Shown: positions 3,776 through 33,760, counted from the first letter of the stretch. The stretch is DNA of 64,000 nucleotides from Burkholderiales bacterium (GCA_043744255.1 JAYTVA010000062.1:7843-71842), one strand, 5' to 3'. Notes: a model not told the origin generated them from the letters alone. Numbers and translations are program-made.

Positions 3776-3825
3776 GGCGTCCTCCTTATCGGGATGGTGG
3801 GTTGGGTTCGGTCGGGCATCGCGGC

Positions 3826-11376: not shown

Positions 11377-11377
11377 G

Positions 11378-12682: not shown

Positions 12683-12745
12683 AGCAGTAAATTTTTAAAC
12701 CATCGGGAAGACACCCGATAGAAAGGTATTGTTGGGAGAACATTG

Positions 12746-15700
12746 ATGGCTGTGAAAGGTGGATTTAGAGAGGCAGATTTTCAAGATGGGATTTTCGTTC
12801 CATTTTTGACATCAACACCCGACAGAGGACTCGTATGGATCAAGGGTGATCCGATGCGGATGTCGCAGAGAGATCGAGAGCGATGGATTTGCTCCGATGA
12901 TTTGTTGTATTTCCTGCGTGAAGGAAACGAAAATAATCGAAGTGCGTTCGAAGATTTGCTGAAGCAATACCCCGGCGAGTCCGATTTACTCGAGGACTTC
13001 GTTGCGCAAGCCTTGCTGCCCAAGCTTTCGTCTTCTACCAATGCCTCACGTGTGCTTCGTGAAACGATCGGATTTAAAGGGTATCAATTCACCCTTTGGA
13101 ATTCAGCGCCCAAGGCCGGTATGGCCCAATCATTGATCGACGATTTTTCGCGCAACCGCGGCCGACTTTTTACTGAGCTTAGCTTTGAGAGAACGTTTCC
13201 CAATGCTGGCAGCCGATTCAATCGGAGGCCTGACGCGACCTTTTTTGTCAACGGGCTCTACCTGGGCGCCGCTGAACTCAAAACGAATCAAACCGGCCAG
13301 TCTGCCGCCGTCAACGGGCGCAAAAAGATTGCCCATGACTTGGTAGAGCTCGCAGCCATGGCGTTGAGGGAGGCTAGATCACTTTGGACAAAATCGAGCG
13401 CGGCTCCATGGCCAGGTTATGCCAGTGACAGGTTGCCGGCTGCGGTTCGCAACAAGATCAACATGGACTGCGCGGTCTACCTCAAAGCCTGCCATGTCGT
13501 CTCTGTCGATATGGGGGCGTTGTTCATTACGGCCGATCTCGAGTGGGTGGTCCAAGAAGTTGACAGGGTGCTATCCGGTAAGAATGAAATTGTCGAGCTT
13601 AATCGTCTGCCTGAGCAAATTATCGGCAAGATCAGTCGAGCACCTGAAATCATGGGTATGACACCGTCAGAAACCATAGCGGAGCACTTGGAGAGCATCT
13701 ATTCACTTCGAGACGGTGTGGACCGCGATGCCTTTTACTTCAACCAAACATGGTCGCCAAATTCGAGCAACAAGCAAGTCGAGCCGTTGAAGCCACGCCC
13801 TGCGCAGCGCATGATGCTTCACCGCACCGTCAAGCGCGTTCGGGAGCTTTATCTTGACGAGAGCAAGCCTAAGATTTGCGAAGCGGACATCAGGCGCGAG
13901 CTTACAGACCTATCTCAGGGGCTCTCTGTCAAAGAAATTAACGAGATCGTCGAAGAAAGCATGAAATTCAAGAATGGAGCCAAGAGCCATTCTGTGTTGC
14001 TTCAAGGCGCGGCGGGTCTCGGCAAGACCTACCTGATCGTTTGGCTAGCACAAGCCCTCTATGAGATGGGCGACCTCAAAGCGCCGACCTACCCGTATCA
14101 GCCGCTGTTCGATTTGATCGTGCTTCTGACTGACCGCACGGAGCTTAGGCACAATATCGCCAAGGATGCAGCCAACCTCGGTTCCACCAGCAAGATCATC
14201 GAAGAGGCCGAGACGTTTGCCGACTTGCGACGCGTCGTCGAAGCAGGACAAAACCGCATCGTCGTGGTGAACATCCAGAAGTTTGCGTCACTGAGCAAGC
14301 TGGCCAATGACGACCCCAAGTTATCTGCTTTGCTAAAAAGCAAGCGCGTGGCGGTCATCATTGACGAGGTTCACCGTAGCCAAGGTGGGGTAATGCACGA
14401 CAACACGCTTGAACTATTTAATGACTGGAATAACCTAACTCCTAATAACAATAGGCGTAATTTAATCATTGGTTTGACGGCCACACCCAAAGGCGAGGCA
14501 CTCGCCAGCTTTGGCGAATGGCGCAGGCCCGTCGCCCCAGGCGACCGCTACCGCTGGGCTCCATTTGCGGCCTACTCGATGGCACAAGCCATCCGCGATG
14601 GGGTAGTTCTCAACCCGATCCAGAGCGTCTTCAAATACACCGATGAACTTGTGTTTGATCTTGGGCGGCTCCAGTCGGAGGTGGACGCGAAGGGTCTGGG
14701 CGCGAGCTCGATAAAAGCACCGAGCGCTGATTCAGTGTATGAAAATCCAACGAGGCAGAAGCTTGTCGCTGAAAAAATAGCGGGAGTGTTCGTGTCGAAG
14801 ACCATGATGGCTATCCGCCGACGCGGACTTCTTGTCGGTGAGGGCAAAGCCATGGTGGCATGTTCTTCGATCAAGGCTGCCATCGGTATGCAGGCCGCCA
14901 TCAAAGAGGCCATGCAGGCATTGGCGCTCGATCCTGGCTACAAGGACCGATCAGCCCACATCGCAGCCTGTCCAGTGCTGATCCTTTACAGCGACAAGCA
15001 AGGTGAGGTTTCCTGTGCTCAGCTCAACGGTGGAAAGGGCCAAACGGCGACCCTCGCTGAGTTTAGACGCGAGGGTGTCGAGGACAAGGACGAGGCAGGA
15101 AAGCTGCGCTGCCGCAACGCCATCATCGTCGTGGTGGACATGCTTCTCACGGGTTTTGACGAAAAGACGCTCCACACTTTGTTCATCGATCGAAGTCTTG
15201 ACGAAGTCGCTCTATTCCAAGCTGCATGCAGAATCAACCGCACGAACAAAAACAAAAGCGACTGCCTGGTCGTCGATTTTTCGCGCAACGGTGTCGTTTC
15301 CAAAGGCTTGCCAGGAGTATTCGCCGAATACGGCGGCCTAACTGTGTCTAATCTTGATGCAATGCATATGAACGAGAAGATGGATGCTGCATGGAGGGCA
15401 TTCTTTGGCGATAAGGACATCGGCGAACATTTCCGCACATGGAAAGCCACCATGTCGGGTGGCAAAGATCATCATGGCGCCGTCAAGCTTTCTGACTGGC
15501 TAGATCAACTCGTCACGGCTGACAAGTCGAGGGCATTGATGCTTAAAAAGGCTGCGTCAGCTTGGATTGGCTGTCGTGACAAGCTCACAGCTCTGCTTGA
15601 CTTTGATCGGCAGGGGCTCGAAAAGCATAAGGACAAGAGGCAAGTTTCGTTTGCCGAACAGGTGGTCAAGCACTTGGCGTCCAAGGGCAAGGCCGAAGGC

Positions 15701-16219
15701 GAGGATGTCGAGGTGTTTTTCGATGTGGTCCAGGTAGAGCAGACCGAGACTTTTGAGCTCGATGTGCACGGGGAATCTGGCAAGGATCAGAATCATCAAG
15801 GAACGCGGGAATCGTCAGCCTTGACTATGGGGCTTGCCATTTCGGACATTGAGTCATCCATCGAGATCATCGATATTCTGAACGTGCTTGGCCTTGAAGA
15901 AGCCAAGAAGGCTATGGCCATTCAGATGTTAAAAGACTTTGTCGATGGGCTCTTCGCCGAGATCGCTGCGTGTGGCGAAAAGAGCGATCGCGTTGGAAAT
16001 TCCGGTTTTTATCGTAAGGCCCTTGCCGCGTGGCTTGCCGGGAAGTCCGATTTCCCATGGGATGAGCGCCTAGCCGAATTCGTAAAGCTATTTAATAAGG
16101 CGAGGTCGAGCGCAAAGTTTGTTGGAAGCGACTTCGCCCGCATTGCGCTCCCAGCACTGTCTAAGCGCCCGGAGATGCTTATGGATGACTACGACCATTT
16201 TATCTCTAAACAAACTTGA
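12746..16219 (+). CDS. hsdR: Type I R-M endonuclease/translocase subunit
   Basis: N-terminal PD-(D/E)xK-like RPDATFFVNGLYLGAAELK. Helicase motif I QGAAGLGKT and motif II VIIDEVHRSQ. Downstream of hsdMS. Confidence 0.85.
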   Translation: MAVKGGFREADFQDGIFVPFLTSTPDRGLVWIKGDPMRMSQRDRERWICSDDLLYFLREGNENNRSAFEDLLKQYPGESDLLEDFVAQALLPKLSSSTNASRVLRETIGFKGYQFTLWNSAPKAGMAQSLIDDFSRNRGRLFTELSFERTFPNAGSRFNRRPDATFFVNGLYLGAAELKTNQTGQSAAVNGRKKIAHDLVELAAMALREARSLWTKSSAAPWPGYASDRLPAAVRNKINMDCAVYLKACHVVSVDMGALFITADLEWVVQEVDRVLSGKNEIVELNRLPEQIIGKISRAPEIMGMTPSETIAEHLESIYSLRDGVDRDAFYFNQTWSPNSSNKQVEPLKPRPAQRMMLHRTVKRVRELYLDESKPKICEADIRRELTDLSQGLSVKEINEIVEESMKFKNGAKSHSVLLQGAAGLGKTYLIVWLAQALYEMGDLKAPTYPYQPLFDLIVLLTDRTELRHNIAKDAANLGSTSKIIEEAETFADLRRVVEAGQNRIVVVNIQKFASLSKLANDDPKLSALLKSKRVAVIIDEVHRSQGGVMHDNTLELFNDWNNLTPNNNRRNLIIGLTATPKGEALASFGEWRRPVAPGDRYRWAPFAAYSMAQAIRDGVVLNPIQSVFKYTDELVFDLGRLQSEVDAKGLGASSIKAPSADSVYENPTRQKLVAEKIAGVFVSKTMMAIRRRGLLVGEGKAMVACSSIKAAIGMQAAIKEAMQALALDPGYKDRSAHIAACPVLILYSDKQGEVSCAQLNGGKGQTATLAEFRREGVEDKDEAGKLRCRNAIIVVVDMLLTGFDEKTLHTLFIDRSLDEVALFQAACRINRTNKNKSDCLVVDFSRNGVVSKGLPGVFAEYGGLTVSNLDAMHMNEKMDAAWRAFFGDKDIGEHFRTWKATMSGGKDHHGAVKLSDWLDQLVTADKSRALMLKKAASAWIGCRDKLTALLDFDRQGLEKHKDKRQVSFAEQVVKHLASKGKAEGEDVEVFFDVVQVEQTETFELDVHGESGKDQNHQGTRESSALTMGLAISDIESSIEIIDILNVLGLEEAKKAMAIQMLKDFVDGLFAEIAACGEKSDRVGNSGFYRKALAAWLAGKSDFPWDERLAEFVKLFNKARSSAKFVGSDFARIALPALSKRPEMLMDDYDHFISKQT

Positions 16220-16300
16220 TATGGGGACCTGTCATATGAGCGAAATGCTGCCGACCAATGGATTTGTTTGATTAAGGTCTTCTTGTTAAATTTTTCTGAA

Positions 16301-16825
16301 ATGGAGAGGATGATGGATAAAAAGCAATTGATACAAGTTATGGCGGCTATGTTGAATCAACTGGCAACGACCGGAGCATTCATTGGGCAGGAACCCTACA
16401 AGTCAGATTTATATCAATTATTTTTAATAGCAGCTAACCAAGATTTTGATATTGATTTTGGCTTGTCTAATATGCACGCCGACAAGTTGCTTGTTGATTT
16501 AATCGCTGAAGGAGTGCCAAATTCAGACGGCAATTTACAACTTGTTTGGGTGATGTGGGAAGAGTGGTCTTTTTGCTACCGCAAGAAGTCGCTGGTTCCA
16601 AGCGACGATGGAAAGGTAGTTGCTCACTTCGTATCATTAAACGATGGTAAGACGTTTGCTTTTGTTAGTGATGGATACCCAGCGACGGTTCGGATGTCCT
16701 TGCTTGGAATGAAGCCGTTAAATAGTAAGCCGGCGGTGCTTGAAGCTCCAAAATATAGTTTCCCACTGAATGGGCCGCTGACCTCTACTTTTTTCTATAA
16801 CGGATTTTTCTTTAAGGCGGACTAA
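16301..16825 (+). CDS. Hypothetical protein (A+T-rich orphan between hsdR and the WYL regulator)
   Basis: Uninterrupted ORF with protein-like composition (MDKKQLIQVMAAMLNQLATTGAFIG...). No motif recognised. Start uncertain (16268/16301/16310). Confidence 0.4.
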   Translation: MERMMDKKQLIQVMAAMLNQLATTGAFIGQEPYKSDLYQLFLIAANQDFDIDFGLSNMHADKLLVDLIAEGVPNSDGNLQLVWVMWEEWSFCYRKKSLVPSDDGKVVAHFVSLNDGKTFAFVSDGYPATVRMSLLGMKPLNSKPAVLEAPKYSFPLNGPLTSTFFYNGFFFKAD

Positions 16826-16900
16826 GGTGCATCTTTCAGTGAGAAATGGTTCCGTATCAAAATGATGAGTGTGGTATCCTCTTTCTGATCGGCGCTTTCC

Positions 16901-17866
16901 TTGCTTCGCCGACGGGCGGGAGGCCCGAGAAAGGGGCTTTTGGCCAGCACATTGGATGTTTCGCAGAACCAGCGCGAGCGACTCGCGTTTTTGGAGCTGC
17001 GCGCGTTCTTCACAGGTGAGCTTCGCAGGGGAGACATCGAGGCGCGGTTCGGCATCAAGCCAGCAGCGGCGTCCCGCGACCTGAGTCTGTATAGGGAAGT
17101 CGCGCCCCACAACCTCGACTACGACCAGGCCTCGCGCTGCTACCGGCCGAGCTCCTCCTTCAAGCCCTTCAATGAATTTCACCCTGAGCGCGTGCTCGCG
17201 TGGTTCTTGCAAGGCTTTGGCGATGGGCTAGACCTTGGTTTGAAGCAAGCGGCACCGTGCGAAGGTCCCGGCCAACTCGTGCGGCCCGACATGGAGGTGC
17301 TAGGCGCCATCACCCGATCCATGTGTGCGAAGAAGGCTCTTCGCGTGAGTTATCTGTCGCTGTCGTCAGGTCCAAAGAATCGTGAGATCGTGCCTGTGGC
17401 GTTAGCCGACAACGGGCTGCGTTGGCATGTGCGCTCTTTTGATCGCGAACGCGGGCGGTTCAATGACTTCGTCTTGACTCGCATTGCGAAGGCTCATGAG
17501 ATAGAGGGAGACGTGGCCGAAACCGAGCTGCTAACTGCCGACGAGCAGTGGGCGCGGATGGTGGACATGGAGCTGGTGGCTCACCCTGGCATCAAGCAGC
17601 CCAAGGCGGTCGAGGCAGATTACGGATTGACCGAGGGCGTCTTGAAGGTCAAAGCGCGCGCGGCTCTTGCGGGTTACGTGCTCCGGCGCTGGTCAGTCGA
17701 TTCAAGCCTGCATCACAGACTTGATCCATCCTCACATCACCTTTGGCTGCGCAACCCTCAGGCGCTCTATGGCGTCGAAAGTGCCGCTTTGGCGCCAGGC
17801 TTTGAGGCCGACATTGCCGCGACTGCCTACGCGGCCGGAAGTAATAAATCAGGGGACAAAAAATGA
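16901..17866 (+). CDS. WYL-domain transcriptional regulator (BrxR/CapW-like)
   Basis: N-terminal wHTH-like [44 protein letters not shown] core [32 protein letters not shown]. The stop overlaps the helicase ATG (ATGA at 17863-17866). The start is TTG, or possibly internal. Confidence 0.75.
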
Positions 17867-20800
17867 AACTCGAATCCATCGCCAAAGGAGCGTTGGTCTC
17901 TGGCATTGAGGAGGGACGAGTCGTCCGAGTGGTGAGTGCCGACCCCTTGGGTGATAACGCTGTCACTGTCGTCTACAAGGCTGATGATGGCCGCTTAGGC
18001 GAGCGTGTGCTCTTTCGCTCCAACGAGTCTGAGCTAAGCATCGCGTCGATTGGGCGTCCTTGGAGCTTTGACGCGGACGGCGCGGACTTCAAGCTCGCTG
18101 CCGAGGCATATCGGATCAACCTCGCCCACTTGTTTGATCCGATGATGGCGGTCCACACGTCCAACGTGGAGCCCCTCCCGCACCAGATCACCGCTGTCTA
18201 TGAGTCCATGCTGCCAAGGCAGCCACTTCGTTATGTGCTGGCCGACGATCCGGGAGCAGGCAAGACCATCATGGCGGGCTTGCTGATTCGCGAGCTGCTA
18301 ATGCGGGCAGACGCCCAGCGCATCTTGATCGTGTCGCCGGGGAGCTTGGTGGAGCAGTGGCAGGATGAAATGTTCGAAAAGTTCGGGCTGTCCTTCTCGC
18401 TGTTCAGCCGCGATCTCATGGATCAAAGCCGCAGCGGAAACGCATTCGACGACCACAACTTGCTCGTGGCCCGGCTCGATCAACTCTCCCGCAGCGAAGA
18501 GCTTCAAGAAAAAATTCGCAATTCGCACTGGGACTTGATCGTGGTTGACGAAGCCCACAAGCTTTCGGCCACTTGGTATGGCACCAAGATCAATGAGACC
18601 AAGCGCTTTAAGCTAGGCCAGTTATTGGGCTCGGTCACGCGCCACTTCCTGCTGATGACGGCTACGCCGCACAACGGCAAGGAAGAAGACTTCCAGCTCT
18701 TCATGTCGCTGCTGGACTCGGACCGCTTCTACGGAAAATTCCGCGATGGCGCTCACAAGGTCGATGTCACGGACCTCATGCGGCGCATGGTCAAGGAAGA
18801 CCTTTTGAAGTTTGACGGCACCCGTCTCTTCCCTGAGCGTAGGGCCTACACCGCGAACTACAAGCTGTCGGAGGCCGAGGCTCAGCTCTACAACGACGTG
18901 ACGACCTACGTCAAAGAAGAGATGAACCGGGCCGACAAACTCGACGGCAAGCGCAAGCGAACCGTCGGCTTTGCGTTGACGGCATTGCAGCGCCGATTGG
19001 CCTCAAGCCCCGAGGCGATCTACCAATCGTTAAAGCGTCGGCGCGAGAAGTTGAAGCGCCGCATCGAGGAAGAGAAGGTCAAGCAGCGTGGCGGTGGCAT
19101 GTCCATGGCAGAAACCTATGCCACAAAAGCATCCGAGGACATTTGGGACTCTGCTGACGACATGGCTCCGGAGGACTACGAGGAATTCGAGGAGGAGGTC
19201 GTCGATCAAGCCACCGCAGCCCAGACCATCGCTGAGCTCGAAGCCGAAGTTTTTACTCTTGGGCACCTCGAAGAGCAGGCCAAGACCTTGGTCCATTCGG
19301 GGCAGGATCGCAAGTGGGAGGAGCTGCGCGAGCTCTTGCAGAACACGCCGGAGATGCGCGGACCCGATGGCTTGCAGCGCAAGCTGATTATTTTCACCGA
19401 GCACCGCGACACGCTCAACTATTTGGCTGACCGCATTCGTGGGCTGATGGGCAAGTTCGAGGCTGTGGTGATGATCCATGGCGGCGTGCACCGCGAGGAC
19501 CGTCGCAAGGTTCAGGAGCTGTTCCGCAACGACAAGGATACCCGCGTCTTGCTGGCCACCGATGCGGCGGGCGAAGGCGTGAATTTGCAGAACGCCCACC
19601 TGATGGTGAACTACGACTTGCCATGGAACCCAAACCGCTTGGAGCAGCGCTTCGGCCGCATCCACCGCATCGGCCAGACCCAGGTTTGCCATTTGTGGAA
19701 CATGGTTGCCGCCGAGACCCGCGAAGGCGACGTGTTCCAAAAGCTTTTCGACAAGATCGAAATCGAGCGCAAGGCGTTGGGTGGACGCGTGTTCGACATC
19801 TTGGGCGAGGTTTTCGATGGCATTAGCTTGCGCGACTTGCTGATCGAGGCGATCCGCTACGGAGAGGACCCTGCGCGCAAAGAACACTTGCGCGAAGTCG
19901 TCGGCACGGCCATGGAAACCGAAAAGTTGCGCGAGATCATCAGCCGCAACGCCTTGGCCGAAGAGGTGATGGACGAGCGCCGTCTCTTCGCGCTCAAGGA
20001 GGAGATGGAGAAGGCAGAAGCCCGCAAGCTCCAACCTTATTTCATTCGGTCTTTTTTCGCCCAGGCCTTCGAGAGACTCGGTGGCGACTTGCGCCCGCGT
20101 GGCTCGGGCCGCTATGAGATCAGCTTTGTGCCCGCCACGATTCGCGAGCGCGACCGCCAGATTTCCGGCCGTGACCGGCGCAGCATGAATCCCGTGGTGA
20201 CGAAATACGAACGTGTCTGTTTTGAAAAGAACAAGGTCCGCGTCGATGAAAAGCCCAACGAGGCCGTCGCGAGCCTGATCCACCCGGCCCATCCCCTGAT
20301 GCAGTCGGTGGTGGATTTGATGACCGAGCAGCACCGCGGCAAGTTGAAGCAGGGCGCCGTCTTGGTGGACCCCAATGACGAGGGAATTGATCCGAAGCTT
20401 TTGTTCCTGATTGACCACTCCGTCAAGGAAGGCGGCGAATCTGGCTTGGTTGTATCGCGCCGCTTGCAGTTCGTCACCATCGACCGGCACGGCCAAATCA
20501 GCAATGCAGGTTGGGCGCCTCACTTGGACCTCAATCCCATAGAGCCTGATCAGCGCGCGGTGGTGGCCGCAGAGATTGATGCCGACTGGATCAACAAGGA
20601 CTTGGAAGAAGCTGCCTTGTGGCACTCGTCGGACAAGCTGGTGCCCGAGCACTTCGAGGAAGTCCGCGAGAGGCGCGAACACCAGATCGACAAGAACCTC
20701 GCAGCGATTCACGAGCGGCTGGTCAAGGAGATCGACTACTGGTCAGACCGTTACGACAAGCTCAAGACCGACCTGTCTGCGGGCAAGGATGTCCGCCTGC

Positions 20801-21384
20801 CGTTGGAAAACGTCAGGCGCACGATTGACGAGCTGACCGTCCGGCTCGAAACGCGCACCAAGAGCCTGCAAGGCATGCGGCATGTGGTCTCTGGCATGCC
20901 GGTGGTGGTTGGCGGCGCATTGGTGATACCCGCAGGTCTGATCGCGATGAAAAGAGGCGAAGCCGAAGGCCCAACGTGGTCTGCCGATGCCCAAGCCCGC
21001 GCCCGTGTCGAGCGGGTCGCCATGGCTGCCGTTCGCAAAGCCGAAGAGGCTAGGGGGCACCAGATCATCGACGTGTCCGCTGAGAAGTGCGGTTGGGACT
21101 TGACTGCCATTGTTCCCGTCGATGAAGGCAAGCTTCCGCAAGCCCGCCACATTGAAGTCAAGGGGCGATCAAAAGGCCAATCGACCATCACCGTCACCCG
21201 CAACGAAATTCTCTACGGACTCAACCAAGCCGATAAGTTCATCTTGGCCATTGTGATCGTCGATGGTGACGACCATGAAGGCCCCCATTACGTTCGCAAC
21301 CCATTCACGCAAGAGCCTGATTGGGCGGTGACCAGTATCAATTTGGACCTCGCGTCCTTGCTCGACAGGGCGGAATCAATATGA
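17863..21384 (+). CDS. SNF2/DEAD-like superfamily 2 helicase with a C-terminal DUF3883-type (restriction-endonuclease-like) domain
   Basis: Motifs [24 protein letters not shown] and [11 protein letters not shown]. The C-terminal CGWDLTA...HIEVKGRS...[22 protein letters not shown] resembles DUF3883. Confidence 0.85.
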
Positions 21385-24236
21385 CACCAATAAAAACACC
21401 GAAGAAACTGATCGAAGTGGCGTTGCCATTGGACGATATAAACGTAGCTGCCGGCCGTGAAAAATCAATAAGATTCGGGCATCCATCGACTCTACATTTA
21501 TGGTGGGCTAGGCGGCCATTAGCCGCAGCAAGAGCAGTGATCTTTGCTCAAATGGTGAACGATCCAGGATATGAGCGAAACCTCGGAAGAGGTGTCAATA
21601 AAGAGAAGGCAAAAGTTGAGCGCGAGCGATTATTCGAGATCATTCGCAAGCTTGTGATTTGGGAAAACACTAACAACGTAGCGTTATTTAAGGAAGCGCA
21701 CGAAGAAATCCGTAAGAGTTGGGTTGAAACTTGCGAATTAAACAAAAATCATCCACTCGCTACTGATCTATTCAATCCAGCAAAAATTCCGGGCCTCCAC
21801 GATCCGTTCGCCGGAGGGGGGTCTATACCTTTGGAAGCCCAGAGGCTTGGGCTGGAAAGCCATGCGTCTGACTTAAACCCTGTTGCAGTTTTGATCAATA
21901 AGGCAATGATTGAAATTCCTCCTAGATTTAACGGGCGAGTGCCAGTAGGTCCGATCCCTAGCGCAGAAAAGCAATCCAAAATAGAACAGGAGTGGTCTGG
22001 AGCTAAAGGGCTAGCAGAAGACGTAGTTCGTTATGGGGCTTGGATGCGAGAAGCAGTCTATGACCGAATTGGTCACTTTTATCCGACCATAAAGTTACCG
22101 AAAAAATATGGCGGAGGCGACGCGACAGTTATCGCGTGGCTATGGGCCAGAACCGTTAAGAGTCCTAACCCTGCTTTTTCTCACGTAGATGTCCCACTCT
22201 CGTCTTCATTTATTTTGTCGAAAAAAGCTGGGAAGGAGATTTATCTTTGTCCAGTAATCAACAATGATAAATATCATTTCGAAGTAATTTCCGGTATCCC
22301 CCCGCTGAGTGCCAGTAGTGGGACGAAGCTGGCGCGCGGCGCGAACTTTCGGTGCCTACTTTCAAATTCACCTATCGAACCGAAATACATCAAGTCGGAA
22401 GGCGTCGCTGGTCGTATGGGTGCCCGACTAATGGCCGTCGTAGCAGAAAGCACCTCTGGCAGGGTTTACGTTGAAGCTAATCAAGAGATGGAGTCGATTG
22501 CCTTAGCCGCAAAGCCCGAATGGAAGCCTGAAACCAAATTGGCAGATGACCCAAGAGCTCTTTGGACGCCAGCATACGGTTTGACTACCTTTGGCGATTT
22601 GTTTACTTCACGTCAGCTTCTGACTCTGACGACCTTCTCGGACATGATCCAAGTCGTGCGGACAAAAGTAAAAGAAGACGCTCTCAGCGCGAGCTGGGTT
22701 GGGGACGATCGAGGCTTAGCGGCAGGAGGTTCCGGTGCGTCGGCATATTCTGACGCTATCGCAGTTTACCTAGGAATTGCTGTCGATAAAACGACTGATT
22801 ACAACAGCAGTCTGGTTGCGTGGAGTCCAACTAGAGATCAATTAAAGACAACTTTCTCACGTCAAGGTTTACCCATGATTTGGGACTATGCAGAGACAAA
22901 TCCGTTTGCCAATGCTGCGGGAGATTTGAATATTTCGGCCCAAGGCATTGCAAGATCAATGCTTGGTCTTCCTGCAACAGGAGTTGCGTTTGTATCTCAG
23001 GTAAACGCCCAAGCTCAAAATATATCAAGTGGGAAAGTAATTTCAACAGACCCACCGTATTACGACAACATTGGCTACGCGGATCTTTCGGATTTTTTTT
23101 ATGTATGGCTTAGGAAGGCGTTACGACCGATTTACCCGGATTTATTTTCAACGATGGCGGTTCCGAAGGTGGAGGAGTTGGTTGCAACTCCTTATCGCCA
23201 CGGAAGTAAGGCCGAAGCTGAAGCTTTCTTTTTGAGCGGTATGACTGAAGCCATGCATCGACTTGCTGAACAGGCTAACCCTTCGTATCCCGCGACAATT
23301 TACTATGCATTCAAGCAGTCGGACACCACGGATGTGGGAACCGGAAATACTGGTTGGGAAACGTTTCTTGAGGCAGTTTTGCGAGCAGGCTTCTCCATTA
23401 CTGGGACGTGGCCGATGAGAACAGAGCGCGACGCTCGCTCAATAGGTATCGGAACAAATGCATTAGCGTCGAGCATTATTCTTGTCTGTCGCCAAAGGTC
23501 TCTGGATGCCCCTACTGCTTCAAGGCGCGACTTTCTCCGTGAGTTAAGAGATGAATTGGCCGATGCTGTGGAAGTAATGATCGGAGGTGCTGAAGGTGTT
23601 TCCCCCGTGGCACCCGTTGATCTCGCTCAAGCGGTTATAGGCCCAGGCATGGCGATTTTCTCGAAGTATTCCTCTGTATTAGAGGCTGATGGCAGTCATA
23701 TGACAGTTCACACGGCCTTGATGCTGATTAATCGAATGTTGACCGACGGCGTCGACGAATTTGATGCGAATACTCAATTTTGTCTAAGCTGGTTCGATGA
23801 GCAAGGTTGGGCTTCTGGTGAGTTTGGTAAAGCGGATGTCCTTGCAAGAGCAAAGGGAACCTCTGTTGACGGAGTAAGGGAGTCGGGCGTAGTTGAGGCA
23901 GGTGCTGGTCGCGTTCGCTTGTTGAAGCCTATCGACTATTCGGATGATTGGTCACCTGGGCGAGACAACACCACGCCTGTCTGGGAGGCCCTGCATCAGT
24001 TAATCCGAGCACTTCGAGACCAAGGAGAGTCGGCATCTGGTTCGTTGTTGGCCGGGATGCCGCAAATTGCTGAGCCCATTCGAAATCTGGCTTACCGCCT
24101 GTATACGCTCTGCGAGCGCAAGGGATGGGCCGACGATGCGCGAGCCTACAACGAGTTGATCACATCATGGACTGGGATCGAGGCTGCTTCGCATGAGAAG
24201 GGCCATCTCGGCTCGCAGGCCAAGTTCGATATTTAG
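21381..24236 (+). CDS. DUF1156-family DNA methyltransferase (COG1743-like)
   Basis: The N-terminal [12 protein letters not shown]...[21 protein letters not shown] is the DUF1156 signature. AdoMet motif DPFAGGGS and catalytic [21 protein letters not shown]. The ATG overlaps the helicase stop (ATGA 21381-21384). Confidence 0.85.
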
Positions 24237-24248
24237 GGAGATATAAAT

Positions 24249-27146
24249 ATGGCACTCAAACCTTGGCGCGAAATCGCCGTTCCCCACGAAGATGTCTTGA
24301 AGGGCACCTTCCAGCAAGCCGAGTTCGCCGCTGACATCTCTAAGGTGCACCAGGGAATCGCGACGCCTGAGTATCAGGATGCGGCTCTGTTTTTCCAACG
24401 GACCTTCATCACCGAAGGCATGCGCCTCTTGCTCGACTCGGTCGTCAAACGGCTCGCGGGCAAGGGAGGTGATCCCGTCGTGCAATTGCAAACAGCCTTC
24501 GGTGGCGGCAAGACCCACACACTTCTTGCTGTCTATCACCTTGCCAAGGGATTGACGCCTGCTAGCAAGATGCAGGGCATCCCGCCGATCTTGGAAGCGG
24601 CGGGCATCACAGAACTTCCGAAGGCTCGCGTGGCGGTGCTTGATGGAGTGGACTTGTTGGACCTTGCGAGCAAGCCCCGTGTTCATGGCAAGACCACCGT
24701 CAAGACGATTTGGGGAGAGTTGGCTTGGCAGTTGGGTGGCGAGGCGGCTTTCGCCAAGCTGATGGAGGCTGACCGTGATGGCACGGCTCCCGGCAAGAGC
24801 GTGATGGCCGACATCATCGGTGGCAGCGCGCCTTGCATCATCTTGATGGACGAGCTTGTTCGCTACGTCTCGCAGTTCGAAGAGGGTAAAACCTTGTCGG
24901 GCGGCACCTACGACACCCAGCTCTCATTCATCCAGTCGCTCACCGAAGCCTTGAAGGCCGTGCCCAACGCGATCCTGCTGGCCTCGCTGCCGTTCTCGGA
25001 CAGGGAAGCTGGCAGCCAGCAAGGCGTGAAGGCTTTAAGGGCCTTAGAGCACTACTTCGGGCGGGTGCAGGCGTTGTGGAAGCCCGTAGCGACCGAAGAA
25101 GCGTTCGAGATCGTCCGCAGGCGGCTGTTTGCCGATGTCACGGACCGACTCGCAGCCGAAGAAGTCTGCCGAGCGTATGCCGACTACTACGCGGCGAATG
25201 CGGGCGACCTACCCCCTGAGGCGCAGGGAAGCGGCTACTTGGATCGGTTGAAGCACGCTTACCCAATCCACCCCGAAGTTTTCGACCGGCTCTATGAGGA
25301 CTGGTCGTCGCTGGACAACTTCCAGCGCACGCGCGGCGTCTTGAAGCTCATGGCCAAAGTTATCCATCGCCTTTGGACCACGGGCAACAACGATTTATTG
25401 ATTCAGCCGGGCAGCCTGCCCTTGTTCGATTCCGACACACGTAACGAGGCGATCTACTACCTGCCTCAGGGTTGGGACCCGGTGCTAGAACGCGACATTG
25501 ATGGCGATCGAGCGGCGACCACTGAGCTCGATAACGCACGCCCACTGTTCGGCTCGATCCACGCATGCCGCCGTATTGCGCGGGCGGTGTTCTTAGGCTC
25601 GGCCCCAGACGCGGGAGCCGTTGGAGGTGCGAAACATCATCGAGGCATCGAGCTGGAACGCGTTCTCTTGGGATGCGTTCAGCCTGGCCAAGTGATTGGG
25701 CACTACAAGGATGGCGTGCGGGCCTTGGTGGACCGACTTCAATACCTCAACAGTGCTAACAACCGCTTTTGGTTTGACACCCGGCCTAACCTACGACGCG
25801 AGATGGAGGACCGTAAGCGCCGCTTTGATCTGCGCGAAGACGTGTATCCCTTCATCAAGGAAAAGCTGCGGTTTGCCAACGGCACCTTTGGTGGTGTGCA
25901 TGTGTTTACGCCATCGTCGGACGTGCCGGATGACTGGCAATTACGCCTCGTGGTGTTGCCGCCCGAGGCCACGTTCAGCAAGGGCGCGCAGTCGCCCGCA
26001 ATTGAGGCGGCCACCGCGATCCTGAAAGGGCGGGGAGATCAGCCTCGCCAGAAGCAAAACCGTTTGATCTTCTTGGCTCCAGACACCGACAGCATCTCGC
26101 GCCTCAAAGACCAAGTGACCTCCTCGCTTGCATGGAAGTCCATCGTCGATGACGTGAAGGAAGGTCGGCTTAACCTCGATGGACACCAGACCAAGCAGGC
26201 ATCGGCCAGCCTCGACCAAGCAAGCGAAGCACTGGGCCGCATGGTGCGCGAGACCTTCAAGTGGCTTTTGGCCCCATTGCAGGAGGCCAAGCCCGGCAAG
26301 GGTATCGGCGAGATTCAGTGGGACCACTTCCAGATCAATCCTGCTTCGGTGAACCGCACCGAAGAAATAGAGAAGGTGCTCAAAGAGCACGAGCTGCTGA
26401 TCACCGAGTGGGCCCCGATCCACTTGACCAAGATGCTGCAAACGTGGTTTTGGAAGGACGACGCGACTGCTGTCAGCGCGTTGGAGACGTGGCAAAAGAC
26501 GTGCTGCTACCTCTACCTGCCGAGGCTTCGCGATGCCGACACACTGCGGGCCACCATCGCGGCGGGCGTATCTTCACGCGACTTCTTCGGCATTGCTTAT
26601 GGCCGCGAAGAGGGCCCATTTCAAGGTTTCAATTTCGCGCAGAGCACTACCCCCATCCTTGACGACTCGCTTCTACTGATCGAGCCCAAGGTTTCGGTAG
26701 CGTTCGCCGCCGAGCTTGCGGCGGAGGCGGCAGAGAGAGAGGCTCAGACCAAGAATAAGGAAACGGGCGGAGCCAGCGCGGGTGGCGGCTCTAACGGCGA
26801 AACCTCAGGCGGGACTTCGACCACTACAACTGGCACCGGCGGCGGCTCCATGGGCTCCACAAGCGGGGGGGCGACGGGCGCTGGATCGAGCCCCGGCACG
26901 GGTAGCGGCGCCACAAAGAAAACGATGTTCTTCGGCTCCGTGGAGTTGAACCCGAATCAGGCCAAGGTGCAGTTTTCCGACGTGGCCGAGGAAGTTCTCA
27001 TGCTTCTCAATAAGCCCGGCGTGAAGCTGCGCATCGCCATCGAGATCGAGGCGGAGCTGCCAAGTGGATTTGACGATGGCATACAGCGCGCTGTGCGCGA
27101 GAACTGCGATCAGTTGAAGTTCAAGAACCGATCGTTCGAAGACTGA
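24249..27146 (+). CDS. DUF499-family P-loop ATPase (BrxC/PglY-like, COG1483-like)
   Basis: Walker [17 protein letters not shown] and Walker [11 protein letters not shown] long helical body is followed by a G/S/T-rich linker and a roughly 75-aa C-terminal domain. RBS gggag lies 12 nt after the MTase stop. Confidence 0.85.
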
Positions 27147-27155
27147 GATGTGGGC

Positions 27156-27503
27156 ATGAGCAAGATCATTGTTCCGGCTCTGCCGACTGCGCGGGAGATG
27201 GAAGAGCTCCTGCAGTCGCTTATCAACGACCAGGAGAGCAATTTTTCGGACGCGCTCGACCACGACGTCTCGCATATCGACCAGCGAGCTCAGGTCGATT
27301 CGGTCCGAATAACCGATGTCGATATCTCTGGTTCACAGATTGCGGTGACTTACGAGCTGGATTACAGCATCTACAACGGCTGTAAGGATATGAATGTCGA
27401 AGATGCTGAGGAACTGCATGTCTTCGGCGAGATGACTGACGAGGGCTGGGCGTTCAATGAACACGTCCCCCCGCCAAAGCGCAGCACTGTGGACGAGTTC
27501 TGA
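27156..27503 (+). CDS. Small acidic hypothetical protein (about 115 aa)
   Basis: Starts 10 nt after the DUF499 stop, on the same strand. Protein-like sequence (..VRITDVDISGSQIAVTYELDYSIYNGCKDMNVEDAEELHVFGEM..). No motif recognised. Confidence 0.5.
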   Translation: MSKIIVPALPTAREMEELLQSLINDQESNFSDALDHDVSHIDQRAQVDSVRITDVDISGSQIAVTYELDYSIYNGCKDMNVEDAEELHVFGEMTDEGWAFNEHVPPPKRSTVDEF

Positions 27504-27562: not shown

Positions 27563-29530
27563 ATGAAGCTCACAAAAGTCCGCGTCCAGAACTATCGGTC
27601 CGTAGAAGACAGCGAAGAATTTGAGATTGACGGCCTCACTTGCCTAGTTGGCAAGAACGAAGCCGGAAAGACAGCGCTCCTCAGTGCCATACGCGGCCTC
27701 AAGCCAGCCCAGCCGTTCGAATTCGACGAAGTTATCGATTACCCAAGGCGTTTTTCGACACGGTTCGACGACCGACACCCTGGCGGGTCAGCAGAGGTTA
27801 TTCGGACGTGGTGGCGACTTGAAGGTCCGGACAATGATGCGGTTGAAAAGCGCTTTGGCCCAGGGGTTCTCAAAGGCGATACCTTTCAGACCCACTTTGG
27901 ATTTAGGTATGACGACGACCGCCGCATCTGGGAAATTGAAATCGATAGCGGAAAAGTTCTGGAAAATATGCTGAGCAAGCATGCCCTCGACGCAACCGAA
28001 CGCAATGCCCTTCACGGCGTGAGCGATGGGCTTGCTGCGGACAAGGCCCTTTCGGGGCTGACCGCGCGAACGCCCAAGCAGGAACTCCTCTTGCAGGATA
28101 TTAAAAAGTGCAGGGAATCGAGCTTCGTCAAGGCAGTGCTCGACATCCTATCTGCAAGGCAACCCAAGTTCTTTTTCACGTCGCACTTCGAGCGCATGTC
28201 GGGCATGGTCTCGATTGAGAAATTGCAGCTAGATAGACAGCAAAACGCGGTTTCGGTTGGGGACAAAATTTTTCTCGATTTCCTCGAATACGCGGGAACC
28301 ACTCTTGAAGACTTGAAGAACGTGGACCGACGCGAGGAGCTCAAGGCCAAATGCGAGGCGGCAAGTAACGAAATAACTGAGGAAATCTTCCAGTTTTGGA
28401 GCCAGAACAATGCATTAGAAGTAGTTATCGAGATCGATAACGCTAAACCCAAAGACCCCGTTCCTTTCAATACCGGCATGGTGGCCGACATACGGATTAA
28501 GAACACCAATCACAAGGCTACGCTTCCGTTGTCGGAGCGCAGCGCGGGCTTTGTATGGTTCTTCTCGTTTCTTGCTCAGTTCAAGCAGCTAAAGAAAACA
28601 CCCGGAAATACCAACGCGATCATTTTGCTGGATGAGCCTGGCCTAACCTTGCATGGAAAGGCGCAAGGCGATTTGCTGCGCTATATCGTCGAGCGGCTGC
28701 TGCCTGACCATCAAGTGATCTTCACCACGCATTCGCCATTTATGGTGCCTATGGATCGGCTCGCCGATGTCCGCATCGTGGAGGACGTAATTATTGAGAA
28801 GCCTGGCCAGCGCACAGAGGTCAAAGGAACGAAGGTGCGTTCGGACGTTCTTGAGGTTAGCGACGACACGCTTTTCCCTCTCCAAGGCGCGCTAGGCTAT
28901 GAAGTGACACAGTCACTTTTTATCGGCGCGAACACATGGCTTGTCGAAGGACCGTCGGACATTCTTTATTTGAAAGTCGTCTCCCAAGCGCTCACTAAGC
29001 GAAGCCGAGTAGGCATTGATCCGAAATGGACGTTATGCCCATCGGGCGGCATCGATAAGCTCGCGCCATTCGTGAGGCTTTTTGGCGGCAATCGTATCAA
29101 TATGGCGGTGCTCTCAGACATTGCGAACGGTGACAAGAATAAGATTGAAAATTTGAAGAAGGCCGACATATTAAAAGCGGGGCACTTCTATACGTGCGCG
29201 GATTTCACTGCGCAGAGTGAAGCGGATGTCGAAGATCTCTTCGAGGCCGACCTGTTCGTCGAGATGCTCAATGGGGCATACAAGCCGCCTGTTGCCAATG
29301 TCGTGGTCAAGGAAGCTTTGATGGTTGCGGCTCCCACCCCGCGTATCGTCAAGAAGGCGGAGGCATTGTTCAAAATGATGCCTGCGTCTGTCGCTGAGTT
29401 CGATCACTTCGGAGCATCTCGTTGGCTTTTGGAAAATCCGTCACTTTTAGATGCCGACACGCCTGCCGTCAATGCAACTCTGGACCGGTTTGAGCAGATT
29501 TTCAAGGCATTCAATCAACTGTTGGGATAA
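27563..29530 (+). CDS. OLD-family-like ABC-type ATPase fused to a TOPRIM-like C-terminal domain
   Basis: VRVQNYRSVEDSEEFEIDGLTCLVGKNEAGKT (Walker A), LSERSAGFVWFFSF (signature-like), AIILLDEPGLTLH (Walker B) and FTTHSPFM (H-loop). These are followed by WLVEGPSDILYL and AVLSDIANGD, a TOPRIM-like Glu and acidic cluster. Strong RBS aagaggagg. Confidence 0.7.
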   Translation: MKLTKVRVQNYRSVEDSEEFEIDGLTCLVGKNEAGKTALLSAIRGLKPAQPFEFDEVIDYPRRFSTRFDDRHPGGSAEVIRTWWRLEGPDNDAVEKRFGPGVLKGDTFQTHFGFRYDDDRRIWEIEIDSGKVLENMLSKHALDATERNALHGVSDGLAADKALSGLTARTPKQELLLQDIKKCRESSFVKAVLDILSARQPKFFFTSHFERMSGMVSIEKLQLDRQQNAVSVGDKIFLDFLEYAGTTLEDLKNVDRREELKAKCEAASNEITEEIFQFWSQNNALEVVIEIDNAKPKDPVPFNTGMVADIRIKNTNHKATLPLSERSAGFVWFFSFLAQFKQLKKTPGNTNAIILLDEPGLTLHGKAQGDLLRYIVERLLPDHQVIFTTHSPFMVPMDRLADVRIVEDVIIEKPGQRTEVKGTKVRSDVLEVSDDTLFPLQGALGYEVTQSLFIGANTWLVEGPSDILYLKVVSQALTKRSRVGIDPKWTLCPSGGIDKLAPFVRLFGGNRINMAVLSDIANGDKNKIENLKKADILKAGHFYTCADFTAQSEADVEDLFEADLFVEMLNGAYKPPVANVVVKEALMVAAPTPRIVKKAEALFKMMPASVAEFDHFGASRWLLENPSLLDADTPAVNATLDRFEQIFKAFNQLLG

Positions 29531-29538: not shown

Positions 29539-30414
29539 ATGAAGAATCCAACAATGATGATGAAGCAGATAGAAGCCTTCCGCATTAGCCTGAGCGACGA
29601 TGAAGTTGTTTCGTCCCAGATGTTTTTGACCGAAGCGAACAAGAGCGAAATCTTTGACGATGACGAAAGGTGGGGCTTGGCTTGCGAGCATGCCGTCGCG
29701 ATGGCCTTGAAGACGGGTTGGGCTCAGGAATACGTTGAACGGCTTGCAAAGCTCAGGGACAAGCCTAGCGAGCTTGAAAAGGTGGCCTGCGCTTACATGC
29801 AAGAACAAGTTTTCGGGGCGGCTATCGCGCTCAAACTGTTGGGTATAAATTTTCTAGACATGCCGTTGCTGGCCGAGGCTGTAAGCTTTGATGGACGGAC
29901 TAGGCACGGCGAGTCCCTCGATTTTGGGTTGATCCGGTTCCTAGTTTGGGGTGGGGCCGACATCAATCGAAGGCATGTGGGCGGTATGACTGCCCTTCAC
30001 CTTCTGGCAGCGACCAAACGAAAACCATATTCCGATCCGACGGGCGTGCGCTGGCTTCTTGAACACGGTGCCGACCCAAGTGCAACAAACTACCGCAGGG
30101 AGACCGCGCTGTCTTACCTGTGTAGAGACAGTGAGACATGGAACGATGAGGAGGGCACCAGTTTCGTCTACCTCGTGCAGGCGGGAGCTGATCCATTCCA
30201 TGTTTCCATGGGTGACACGCCATACAGCATGCTCAAAGCTATCGCGGCGAGGGAGGCCAATGCTCATGCCTTCGCTCTCATCGCCTACATGGAAAAACAC
30301 GAACAAGCGATCCGTGCGGACACGCAAAGACGTGCGGCCGAAAAATCGATTGACAGGCAGCAACACTCATTGCCGATGAAGGCGAAGGCTAAGAGGGGCG
30401 ATTCATCCCATTGA
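29539..30414 (+). CDS. Ankyrin-repeat protein
   Basis: Three ANK-like units: GGADINRRHVGGMTALHLLA, LLEHGADPSATNYRRETALSYL and LVQAGADPFHVSMGDTPYSML. Starts 8 nt after the OLD-like gene. Confidence 0.75.
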   Translation: MKNPTMMMKQIEAFRISLSDDEVVSSQMFLTEANKSEIFDDDERWGLACEHAVAMALKTGWAQEYVERLAKLRDKPSELEKVACAYMQEQVFGAAIALKLLGINFLDMPLLAEAVSFDGRTRHGESLDFGLIRFLVWGGADINRRHVGGMTALHLLAATKRKPYSDPTGVRWLLEHGADPSATNYRRETALSYLCRDSETWNDEEGTSFVYLVQAGADPFHVSMGDTPYSMLKAIAAREANAHAFALIAYMEKHEQAIRADTQRRAAEKSIDRQQHSLPMKAKAKRGDSSH

Positions 30415-30494
30415 TGAGGCTACCAGGCGCAAATCAATGAGATGCAGCGGGCATAAGCCGAGGCGGGGCTTGATCTTCGCCTGCTGACGCCTCG

Positions 30495-31019
30495 TCACGG
30501 TTTGTTGGCTTGCACAGTTTGCGATGCCGGCATGAGCTCTGCGCGGATCGCTGCGGCGTCCGGTTTTGCTTTGGACTGCCAGCGGACCGTCTTGTATCCC
30601 GCGCTGGCCAGCATCGCGTCGCGTTTGGCGTCCTTGTCGGCTTTGTGCGTTCGGTCGTCGAGCTCGATGATGGCGACCACGGCGCCTGTCTTGCGATCCT
30701 GAGCGACAAAGTCCACGAACTTTTGAGCGAACATGCCGCGCAGCCTCATGTAGGCCTTGCCTTCGCTTCTGGGCACATCGGGATCGAGGATCGACCCCAT
30801 GGCGACCTGAGGGCAAATCCGAAACTCGGGGACTGCGGCCTCAAGGCGGCCGAGGAATTCGAGTTCGTTAGGGGTCAGCAGTGGCTTGGCCTTGAACCGA
30901 TCTTTTGAGGTCTCCGAACCTGCGCCCGATGCGGCCAGCTTGGCTTTGAGCACCACCAATCCAACGGCGACAACTCCGACGATCGCCGCGATCAATACTA
31001 GGTTCGAAGTCGCGCTCAT
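30495..31019 (-). CDS. DUF2726-domain protein (membrane-anchored, endonuclease-fold-like)
   Basis: N-terminal TM helix NLVLIAAIVGVVAVGLVVL, then LTPNELEFLGRLEAAVPEFRICPQV...FVDFVAQDRKTGAVVAIIELDDRTH...RDAMLASAGYKTVRW, typical of DUF2726. RBS aaagga precedes ATG 31019. Confidence 0.75.
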   Translation of the reverse strand: MSATSNLVLIAAIVGVVAVGLVVLKAKLAASGAGSETSKDRFKAKPLLTPNELEFLGRLEAAVPEFRICPQVAMGSILDPDVPRSEGKAYMRLRGMFAQKFVDFVAQDRKTGAVVAIIELDDRTHKADKDAKRDAMLASAGYKTVRWQSKAKPDAAAIRAELMPASQTVQANKP

Positions 31020-31180
31020 GAATATCCTTTGTGTTGTTTTGTCCAAGCGCGGCCTGGAATCCGTTCAGGCCAGAGTAATTTACTGATTTTATGTGTCGGT
31101 GTCATCTTTTAGGCGCTCCAACGTAGCTACTGTTGCGAGCTTCATATTGTTTCGCGTGCTGATTTTGAGTTGACGACAGA

Positions 31181-31474
31181 TTAGGGCGGCGTTTTTTTGC
31201 CCAAGCTTGCCATGCGTTCTTTAAGGCATTGGGCTCCAAGCTGATTCTTCTCTTCGAGGTTTCGGGCATTGCGCGCAGATAAATCGTTGCAGTCTCTGCT
31301 AATGGCCGCGATCTCATTGGCGTTTGCGGTGAGAGCGTTCACTCCGGACTTGATCATTGATGTTTCAAGGGGGTAAATTAAAAAGGCGAAGAAAACTCCG
31401 GCGGCCAGCCTCAGTCCGATACTGCGAAATGACGATCGGTTTTTCCCCACTGGCGCCTCCCTATTCAAAGGCAT
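31181..31474 (-). CDS. Hypothetical small membrane-anchored protein
   Basis: One hydrophobic helix (LRLAAGVFFAFLIY) then a helical tail. The evidence is weak: ORF only. Confidence 0.25.
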   Translation of the reverse strand: MPLNREAPVGKNRSSFRSIGLRLAAGVFFAFLIYPLETSMIKSGVNALTANANEIAAISRDCNDLSARNARNLEEKNQLGAQCLKERMASLGKKTPP

Positions 31475-31624
31475 TTCCCTTGATGGAGATGCACAAGTCA
31501 AGCGGATCAAGCCGAGCAATGACAGACGGATCACTCGGCCTTGGAAAATCGGTCAAGTGAGCGCCATCGTTCGCGGTTGTTTGCCTTCGCCGAGGTGGAC
31601 CGGCACACGACAACGAATTCCTCA

Positions 31625-32206: not shown

Positions 32207-32352
32207 TTGTCCACACGCTTTTCGGGGATCAAAGGGGGACTGGGCGCATGACTTACAGCCATATCTTGAGCATTCATGCGCCTTAAAAAGTCATGCGCGT
32301 GTAGTGCGCCATCATGGGGGTGTGTTGCGTTTGTTTGGCGCTATCGGCTTGC

Positions 32353-32565: not shown

Positions 32566-32569
32566 ATTG

Positions 32570-33708: not shown

Positions 33709-33745
33709 GCGTCCAATCCGGAATTTAGCTGCGTCCAATCCGGAA
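33709..33745. repeat. 15-bp direct repeat x2 (gcgtccaatccggaa) just 3' of suhB
   Basis: Copies at 33709-33723 and 33731-33745 are identical and separated by 7 nt. They sit 16 nt from the suhB stop, at the island/core boundary. Confidence 0.8.
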
Positions 33746-33760
33746 AGTAACGCCCCAAAC

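Follow-up and report, generated by a model that had tools for sequence, protein, structure and literature searches.

A BrxR-headed Hma (type-1 BREX-related) defence operon in a Burkholderiales bacterium and its comparison with BREX, DISARM and other Hma systems

Hma was proposed in 2021 as a candidate defence system found in 26 phyla (Payne et al., PMC8565338), and 63% of Hma loci were later reported to carry embedded defence genes (2024, bioRxiv 10.1101/2024.01.29.577857). When HmaA of Halomonas meridiana was produced by itself in E. coli, T4 was lowered about 100-fold (Liu et al. 2024, PMC11232893), and T5, T7 and EEP were not reduced. The protection required helicase motif VI and the PD-(D/E)xK residues, and the isolated NOV_C domain nicked supercoiled plasmid in the presence of Mn2+ (PMC11232893). 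Rakesh and Krishnan (2026, PMC12839542) renamed Hma the type-1 BREX-related (BR) system. In their paper, the DUF499 protein is equated with BrxC, the methylase with PglXI of type 3 BREX and the helicase with BrxHII, and a "sense, modify, restrict" model is given in which methylation marks self, the DUF499 ATPase is the sensor or scaffold and the helicase-nuclease is the effector; OLD/Toprim and PD-(D/E)xK auxiliary nucleases are catalogued beside the BR cores. In the present work, a stretch of 64,000 nucleotides (nt) from a Burkholderiales bacterium (JAYTVA010000062.1:7843-71842), hereafter the window, was analyzed with coordinates counted from its first letter, and an Hma locus headed by the regulator gene brxR was located at 16940-27146. 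The reading adopted for the region, which we regard as probable, is a BrxR-controlled Hma (type-1 BREX-related) defence operon carried as cargo by a mobile element on which an integrase, a type IV coupling protein and ArdC are encoded.

The identity of the locus was established with PADLOC, whose definition of Hma comprises the HmaA, HmaB and HmaC models on one strand, each once, with at most three genes between neighbours. All three models matched full length in the window, and the three genes shared one strand with none embedded, so that the locus is almost certainly an Hma system. The first gene, hmaA (17863..21384, + strand), encoded a Swi2/Snf2 helicase of 1173 amino acids (aa) which matched the PADLOC model PDLC00659 with 2044.9 bits (E = 0, residues 1-1171 against positions 2-1170 of 1176) and the Pfam families SNF2-rel_dom (4.5e-17), Helicase_C (1.6e-23) and NOV_C (2.5e-19). 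The helicase motifs DDPGAGKT (aa 128, 18244-18267) and DEAH (aa 229, 18547-18558) were present. An earlier note on this DNA, made from the sequence alone, had described the C-terminus of the helicase as a DUF3883-like nuclease fold; this was borne out by NOV_C, the same family under another name, a PD-(D/E)xK domain at aa 1049-1140 (nt 21007-21282), and the nuclease residues D1079, E1098 and K1100 were invariant in 18 homologues. The AlphaFold2 (AF2) model of HmaA, made with a view to Tudor and inactive-nuclease domains, was poor, with a mean predicted local distance difference test (pLDDT) of 47.8, and showed three short strands at residues 20-51 with low confidence.

The second gene, hmaB (21381..24236, + strand, 951 aa), encoded a DUF1156-type DNA methyltransferase, which matched PDLC00660 (1584.1 bits) and PDLC00661 (1568.9 bits), both full length with E = 0. 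The DUF1156 match covered aa 14-87 (3.8e-29), and motif I, FAGGGS (aa 143, 21807-21824), and motif IV, DPPY (aa 557, 23049-23060), were found. From the DPPY motif, HmaB is probably an N6-adenine methyltransferase. The third gene, hmaC (24249..27146, + strand, 965 aa), encoded a DUF499 P-loop ATPase (PF04465, 7.7e-28) which matched PDLC00662 with 1429.2 bits (E = 0, residues 1-964 against positions 1-940 of 941). Its Walker A GGGKTHT (aa 85, 24501-24521) and Walker B ILMDEL (aa 198, 24840-24857) were followed by a G/S/T-rich linker (aa 838-889) and a small C-terminal domain, and an N-terminal HEPN domain was absent. No PDB relatives of HmaB or HmaC were found by sequence search. The catalytic motifs quoted in the earlier note were thus all recovered in the translations of the three proteins, as were all of the families it had named (WYL, SNF2-rel_dom, Helicase_C, NOV_C, DUF1156 and DUF499) together with HmaA, HmaB and HmaC.

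The layout of four co-directional genes was reproduced as + strand open reading frames (ORFs) at 16901..17866, 17863..21384, 21321/21381..24236 and 24249..27146. Both ATGA overlaps were found: at 17863-17866 (aaaaATGAaact) the regulator TGA shares bases with the helicase ATG, and at 21381-21384 (aatATGAcacc) the helicase TGA shares bases with the methyltransferase ATG. The 12-nt gap between methyltransferase and ATPase was likewise seen, in which the TAG at 24234-24236 is followed by ggagatataaat (24237-24248, containing GGAG) and then by the ATG at 24249. No gene intervenes within hmaABC, which makes this a compact copy. In total, 185,579 species-representative genomes were scanned with an HmaA alignment and the best 80 loci, with 52-90% identity and from many phyla, were kept; the order hmaA-hmaB-hmaC was preserved in 79 of them. 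Hundreds of homologues with 52-100% identity had the same gene order, which indicated that these are real genes and not chance ORFs. An antisense ORF of 560 aa inside hmaA (19030-20712, minus strand) most probably arises from the high G+C of the sense gene. The hmaA-hmaB junction differed among relatives. In three of the nearest Hma relatives (L093, L094 and L096, HmaA 91-94%), a 225-aa DUF4145 gene (~3535-4224 there) was embedded between the two genes, and four other loci (L011, L012, L014 and L016) had a gap of ~680-790 nt; the embedded gene was absent in the window, L001 and L091, which have the ATGA overlap instead, and in L013, which has a short gap.

The variability of HmaB was measured against two loci, L001 and L094, whose HmaA and HmaC are 91-94% identical to those of the window. 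HmaA was 94% and HmaC 91% identical, whereas HmaB was only 66% identical. The difference was concentrated at aa ~275-545 (22203..23015, + strand), between motifs I and IV, where identity fell to 15-65% and was mostly below 50% from aa 351; G+C decreased across the same nucleotides from ~0.59 to 0.49-0.50. HmaA had no comparable variable block, and the stretches in which HmaC varied (residues 101-200, and the linker and C-terminal domain at 800-900) did not covary with the HmaB insert. In sequence, the insert looks like a target-recognition domain exchanged by recombination. A hypervariable HmaB insert amid conserved HmaA and HmaC suggests that HmaB alone fixes the DNA motif. If self is discriminated by methylation, restriction must also read the motif via HmaB, because HmaA and HmaC have no region covarying with the insert; the PglX of BREX and the Mod of type III systems would be the analogues. 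It is predicted that HmaB alone sets the motif for both modification and restriction, and if this is true, Hma could be re-targeted by an insert swap.

The gene at the head of the locus, brxR (16940..17866, + strand, TTG start), encoded a WYL-domain transcriptional regulator of 308 aa (Pfam WYL 2.7e-8), whose start was set by homologue alignment. The suggestion of a BrxR-type WYL regulator agreed with a match to PDB 7qfz, the BrxR of E. fergusonii pEFER (E = 4.3e-76, residues 6-289), and a 98%-identical homologue carried WHD_BrxR (PF26109), WYL (PF13280) and BrxR_CTD (PF26107). Judged by these matches, the regulator is a genuine BrxR-family WYL protein. Its start had to be revised. The TTG at 16901, where the earlier note began the region, is merely the first in-frame start codon after a stop, and alignment with nine homologues placed the start at TTG 16940 instead, which gives the N-terminus MASTLDVSQ and was also chosen by the gene caller in the near-identical contigs L002 and L003. 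A start at TTG 16952 was rejected, since the codon there is CTG in 98%-identical loci and the homologues all start at the 16940 position.

Conservation of the DNA upstream of brxR began exactly 85 nt before the start codon, across loci with differing downstream defence genes. Here a candidate BrxR operator was recognized by conservation, the pseudo-palindrome TATCAAAATGATG (16855..16867, + strand; consensus TATCAA-N-TTGATA), and conserved together with it was an extended -10-like element, TGGTATCCT (16872..16880, + strand), with a predicted promoter function. The composite 23-nt motif TATCAAWWTGATNNGYRTGKTAW, palindrome plus -10-like element, occurred once in each of nine loci, always at the same distance, and had a single occurrence in the window; a search of the window gave no further BrxR box within the locus. 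Experiments showed the BrxR of pEFER to act as a repressor and to bind inverted repeats in the promoter of its gene (PMC9122601). By analogy, the BrxR of the window may repress its own transcription at 16855-16867. A leader hairpin pairing 16878-16886 with the Shine-Dalgarno region at 16928-16936 was also considered from an inverted repeat and an RNAalifold fold, and was not supported, since the covariation term was unfavourable and the fold did not surpass that of shuffled sequence (z = -0.68). Upstream of these elements, between hsdR and brxR, lay an AT-rich ORF of up to 185 aa (16268-16825) with no Pfam, PADLOC or NCBIfam match; L003 has an unrelated ORF in this position.

The association of this regulator with Hma was then assessed in the 69 of the best 80 HmaA loci that had an upstream ORF of at least 90 aa. 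WYL was the commonest family directly upstream of hmaA (9 of 69 loci; the next families had 2 each), and all nine WYL-headed loci were among the closest to the window, with 70-90% identity over the best HmaA segment; those with names came from Burkholderiales genera, Rhodoferax, Massilia, Pandoraea and Ramlibacter among them. Relatives of BrxR with 74-86% identity headed type 1 BREX in Cupriavidus (L005-L010) and a ResIII/N6_N4-methylase/UvrD/OLD cluster (L004). Because close relatives head BREX and other systems, BrxR is a swappable cassette. Picton et al. showed that defence systems of many kinds have a BrxR homologue at their head, and Hma is not named in the searched parts of that paper; Hma is one more system type headed by BrxR homologues. 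The regulator had been described as translationally locked to the effector genes. The 4-nt overlap on which this was solely based was observed, but the other BrxR-Hma loci are gapped by ~6-260 nt, so that the overlap is particular to this lineage. Compared to other homologues, the BrxR of the window and its 98%-identical relative had ~12 extra C-terminal residues, and the last 21 residues (17801-17863) could not be aligned. This tail before the hmaA overlap fits a recombination scar left by joining of the regulator cassette to Hma.

The array had been thought to end at 27146, whereas co-directional genes ran on to ~30.4 kb. The first of them, orf115 (27156..27503, + strand), starts 9 nt after hmaC and encodes an acidic 115-aa protein (25 D/E, 7 K/R) which was assigned to no Pfam or NCBIfam family. 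The gene followed hmaC in each context read, directly and with a gap of 2-10 nt in the window and in L001, L091-L098 and L099-L102, and with one extra small ORF in between in L011. A word-based search of 5.8 billion proteins gave 47 clusters of close relatives, all with at least 63% identity, and an exhaustive profile search added ~200 relatives of 115 aa at greater distance. The idea that orf115 is a component of Hma in general was rejected, since the broad profile hit only 2 of 41 sampled Hma loci with downstream DNA and a remote relative lay beside a transporter gene; it is a lineage-specific accessory fourth gene of this Hma sublineage. The AF2 model of its product had a pLDDT of 87, the best PDB matches were NTF2/SnoaL-like and weak (E = 0.014, template modelling score at most 0.4), and the fold search of a viral library gave no match. 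It is the least explained element of the locus. The gene after orf115 varied, being an OLD ATPase, an Mrr_cat nuclease, or unknown genes together with an ankyrin protein. One conceivable role is that of a dedicated fourth subunit of this sublineage, which, as adaptor or gatekeeper at the hmaC 3' end, would couple the Hma core to swappable backup nucleases of the OLD-Toprim or Mrr type; we consider this quite unlikely. If it were true, the unit would comprise seven genes in a two-layer defence operon gated by BrxR, instead of the three-gene system of current definitions.

The next gene (27563..29530, + strand) encoded an OLD-family ABC ATPase of 655 aa, which matched Pfam AAA_15 (6.6e-25) and AAA_21, PADLOC AriA, Old and GajA, and the OLD nuclease of PDB 6p74 (2.3e-7). 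VEGPSD was found at aa 461, the PADLOC Old and GajA alignments reached residues 519-534, and there was no Pfam Toprim hit. From the motif and the extent of the alignments, the protein probably has a C-terminal Toprim nuclease domain. The last co-directional gene (29539..30414, + strand), starting 8 nt after the OLD gene, encoded an ankyrin-repeat protein of 291 aa (Pfam Ank 4.4e-7). The OLD-ankyrin pair was also found in the metagenomic contig L099 and matched no named defence system. The Acidovorax carolinensis plasmid pACP3.2 carried hmaABC, orf115 and the OLD gene at 81% DNA identity, and the protein identities were 94% (HmaA), 67% (HmaB), 91% (HmaC), 80% (orf115) and 87% (OLD). The five genes also occurred together in metagenomic contigs. 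Their presence in the Acidovorax plasmid at 67-94% protein identity suggested that the five genes travel as a block. The ankyrin gene was absent after the Acidovorax OLD gene, and its membership of the unit is therefore uncertain; that plasmid also lacked brxR and had a 400-nt non-coding stretch in its place. A terminator-like hairpin (30485..30497, + strand) was weakly indicated by pattern scan after the last co-directional gene.

Based on these features, a restriction-modification-like mechanism can be proposed, for and against which we find the case evenly balanced. BrxR dimers on TATCAA-N-TTGATA would repress one promoter for brxR and hmaABC, which would probably also drive the orf115, OLD and ankyrin genes, and a ligand of the WYL domain appearing during infection would relieve the repression. 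HmaB would read a short DNA motif via its variable insert and methylate the host copies (N6-adenine methylation is suggested by DPPY), and unmethylated foreign motifs would also be recognized through HmaB. HmaC, an ORC/Cdc6-like P-loop ATPase, would serve as scaffold and sensor. HmaA would translocate along the DNA and nick it with the PD-(D/E)xK domain, so stopping phage replication, and the appended OLD nuclease would be a backup effector.

Several points speak against this picture and against the region as a single BrxR-controlled operon. The sigma-70 scan reported neither the -10-like element nor the operator, both of which rest on conservation. An AT-rich gap of 59 nt precedes the OLD gene, which is furnished with a strong ribosome-binding site of its own. 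At the level of sequence, HmaC could not be tied to BrxC: the earlier note had called DUF499 the ATPase family of BrxC, yet HmaC hit no BrxC model in PADLOC, and hhalign of a 42-sequence HmaC alignment against Cupriavidus BrxC gave a probability of 0.4% (E = 0.14); the published relation (PMC12839542) rests on structure comparison. No experiment has been reported to show methylation by any HmaB or a need for HmaB or HmaC in defence. Moreover, Halomonas HmaA was non-toxic without HmaB and protected E. coli alone, and passage of T4 through a host expressing HmaB gave no escape, contrary to what simple restriction-modification predicts; ~15-20% of hmaA genes have no hmaB or hmaC nearby (PMC11232893).

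The separate ribosome-binding site of the OLD gene bears on another explanation, in which the array consists of independent defence modules piled up at a hotspot of the island (brxR-hmaABC, orf115, and a stand-alone OLD gene with the ankyrin gene), co-oriented since insertions into defence operons tend to be so. The changing gene after orf115 agrees with such a stack, and Hma loci as a rule have further defence genes embedded in them or beside them (bioRxiv 10.1101/2024.01.29.577857; PMC12839542). However, hmaABC, orf115 and the OLD gene move together between the window, the Acidovorax plasmid and metagenomic contigs with 80-94% protein identity, the close spacing of orf115 to hmaC is kept in all contexts read but L011, and the pattern scan found no convincing terminator between genes of the array. 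Independent modules appeared somewhat unlikely.

The results with Halomonas HmaA can also be explained if HmaA is an autonomous effector of an abortive-infection-like or dormancy-like kind, which senses phage replication or supercoiled intermediates, with HmaB and HmaC as modulators (epigenetic regulation, anti-defence sensing). The protection by HmaA alone, the lack of toxicity, the failure of HmaB passage to shield T4 and the hmaA genes without partners are all as expected from an autonomous effector, and the protection collapsed at high multiplicity of infection (PMC11232893). In contrast, autonomy does not account for the A-B-C order kept in 79 of 80 loci from many phyla, for the joining of hmaABC by overlaps and a 12-nt gap, or for an HmaB insert that is hypervariable in the manner of restriction-modification specificity domains, and the Halomonas test was made in a heterologous host with multicopy expression and one phage with modified DNA. 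We regard an autonomous HmaA as unlikely. That phage, T4, raises a further alternative, a modification-dependent, type IV-like Hma in which HmaA attacks foreign-modified DNA and methylation by HmaB is regulatory. The only phage restricted so far has glucosyl-hydroxymethylated DNA, while T5, T7 and EEP were unrestricted, and BR helicases are reported to have an N-terminal Tudor-like "reader" domain (PMC12839542), the ATPases of these systems having a C-terminal RRM-like domain. A linked methyltransferase with a hypervariable recognition insert is, however, the hallmark of modification-protected and not of modification-dependent systems, and type IV enzymes of the GmrSD type frequently sit inside Hma loci as complements (bioRxiv 10.1101/2024.01.29.577857). 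Type IV-like action is highly improbable. Confidence in the restriction-modification-like mechanism was kept at the halfway point because Halomonas HmaA was active and harmless alone and passage through HmaB was unprotective. The earlier remark that the mechanism of the trio had not been worked out holds for the joint action of the three proteins, on which no mechanistic study was found in the literature; it does not hold for HmaA, for which the block of T4 and the nicking by NOV_C are published (PMC11232893).

The surroundings of the locus were those of an integrative mobile element. The genes identified encoded a tyrosine integrase of 560 aa (1004-2686), a repressor-like protein of the S24-peptidase type (3131-4222, on the minus strand), a coupling protein of the TrwB/TraD type (4616-6949) and the anti-restriction protein ArdC (7721-8749), so that 1004-8749 is the backbone of an integrative mobile element and the Hma operon is its cargo. 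No other conjugation genes were found in the window, the search for attachment-site repeats between 1-1100 and 30400-33800 gave only a 13-nt chance match, and tRNA genes and Rfam families were absent from the window. Between the backbone and brxR lay a complete type I restriction-modification system (8983-16219) composed of hsdM (8983-11376, 797 aa), hsdS (11378-12682, 434 aa) and hsdR (12743-16219, 1158 aa). L002 and L003 shared the backbone and the brxR-hmaA junction with the window but had no type I system, which suggested that it is a separate insertion and that the cargo is modular. At the other side, a convergent DUF2726/DUF559 nuclease-like gene (30495-31046, minus strand) closes the array. 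Only short unassigned ORFs were seen from 31 to 33.7 kb, a region which probably holds the right end of the island, before housekeeping genes from ~33.7 kb, including a suhB-like inositol monophosphatase gene (33761-34549), the isc operon, mfd and others. No near-identical DNA was found in E. coli genomes.

With 26 phyla and ~2400 taxa given in the published work, Hma (type-1 BR) counts among the defence systems of wider distribution. The copy in the window is convenient for testing, since it is compact, without embedded genes, with intact motifs and with a recognizable repressor and candidate operator. The link between Hma and BREX is already in print, and the window holds an ordinary copy of a known system; the regulator at its head, the appended genes and the hypervariable insert of HmaB add useful detail but do not make it a new kind of system, and otherwise nothing was unexpected beyond the 2021-2026 literature.

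Compared to the Hma of Halomonas meridiana, the locus has the same gene order, full-length PADLOC models, and the Snf2 and NOV_C domains with the D/E/K residues needed in Halomonas. Differently, the Halomonas copy has an embedded Septu and an ATPase pair, and the copy of the window is compact, preceded by brxR and followed by the orf115, OLD-family and ankyrin genes. The likeness to type-1 BR, as described in PMC12839542, extends to a DUF499 ATPase with an intact P-loop, a DUF1156 N6-methyltransferase with an insert, a Swi2/Snf2 helicase with PD-(D/E)xK, the lack of PglZ, DUF3780 and HKD, and an OLD-type auxiliary nuclease adjoining the core. The reading of the locus as BREX-like without PglZ follows the same logic as that proposed there from comparative genomics. 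The absence of PglZ, a type 3 marker, was upheld by a Pfam scan that included all window ORFs of at least 400 aa except the antisense ORF in hmaA, and the type 2 markers DUF3780 and HKD were absent from the same proteins. The NCBIfam models for the type-2-like PLD-helicase/DUF1156/DUF499 proteins scored far below cut-off (113 versus 1000 bits, and 198 versus 1200 bits). With neither type 2 nor type 3 markers and with these low scores, the locus was assigned to the type-1 subtype of BREX-related systems, as a variant whose ATPase has no HEPN domain. In that respect it belongs to a subset of type-1 BR, and it differs further in BrxR and the 115-aa gene, neither of which is mentioned for BR in the examined parts of PMC12839542.

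Type 3 BREX (BrxHII, PglXI, BrxC and PglZ) is approached by the PADLOC BrxHII match of HmaA (3.4e-103, residues 76-764), by a methyltransferase with an internal recognition insert, by a large P-loop ATPase and by BrxR-type regulation. However, no PglZ, BrxA, BrxB or BrxL was found, HmaC was unmatched by BrxC models, the match of HmaB to PglXI reached only E = 0.008, and HmaA has a predicted active nuclease domain which most BREX helicases lack. A likeness to DISARM lies in the relation of HmaA to DrmD (NCBIfam 386 bits; PADLOC 5.7e-121) beside an adenine methyltransferase, which in DISARM is DrmMI. The DrmD score was below the cut-off of 610 bits, and DrmA, DrmB, DrmC and DrmE were not detected; for the DrmA-DrmB pair, only HmaA matched a DrmA model, as one of many helicase-family hits, and DrmB was unmatched in the proteins of the locus. 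As for the regulator, the BrxR of pEFER (PDB 7qfz; PMC9122601) and that of Acinetobacter (PDB 7t8k) belong to the same three-domain family and likewise lie upstream of and co-directional with defence genes, and the inverted repeats at the promoter of pEFER brxR have a counterpart in the candidate inverted-repeat operator of the window. Unlike both, the brxR of the window heads Hma and not BREX, overlaps the hmaA start with its stop codon, and encodes a lineage-specific C-terminal tail.

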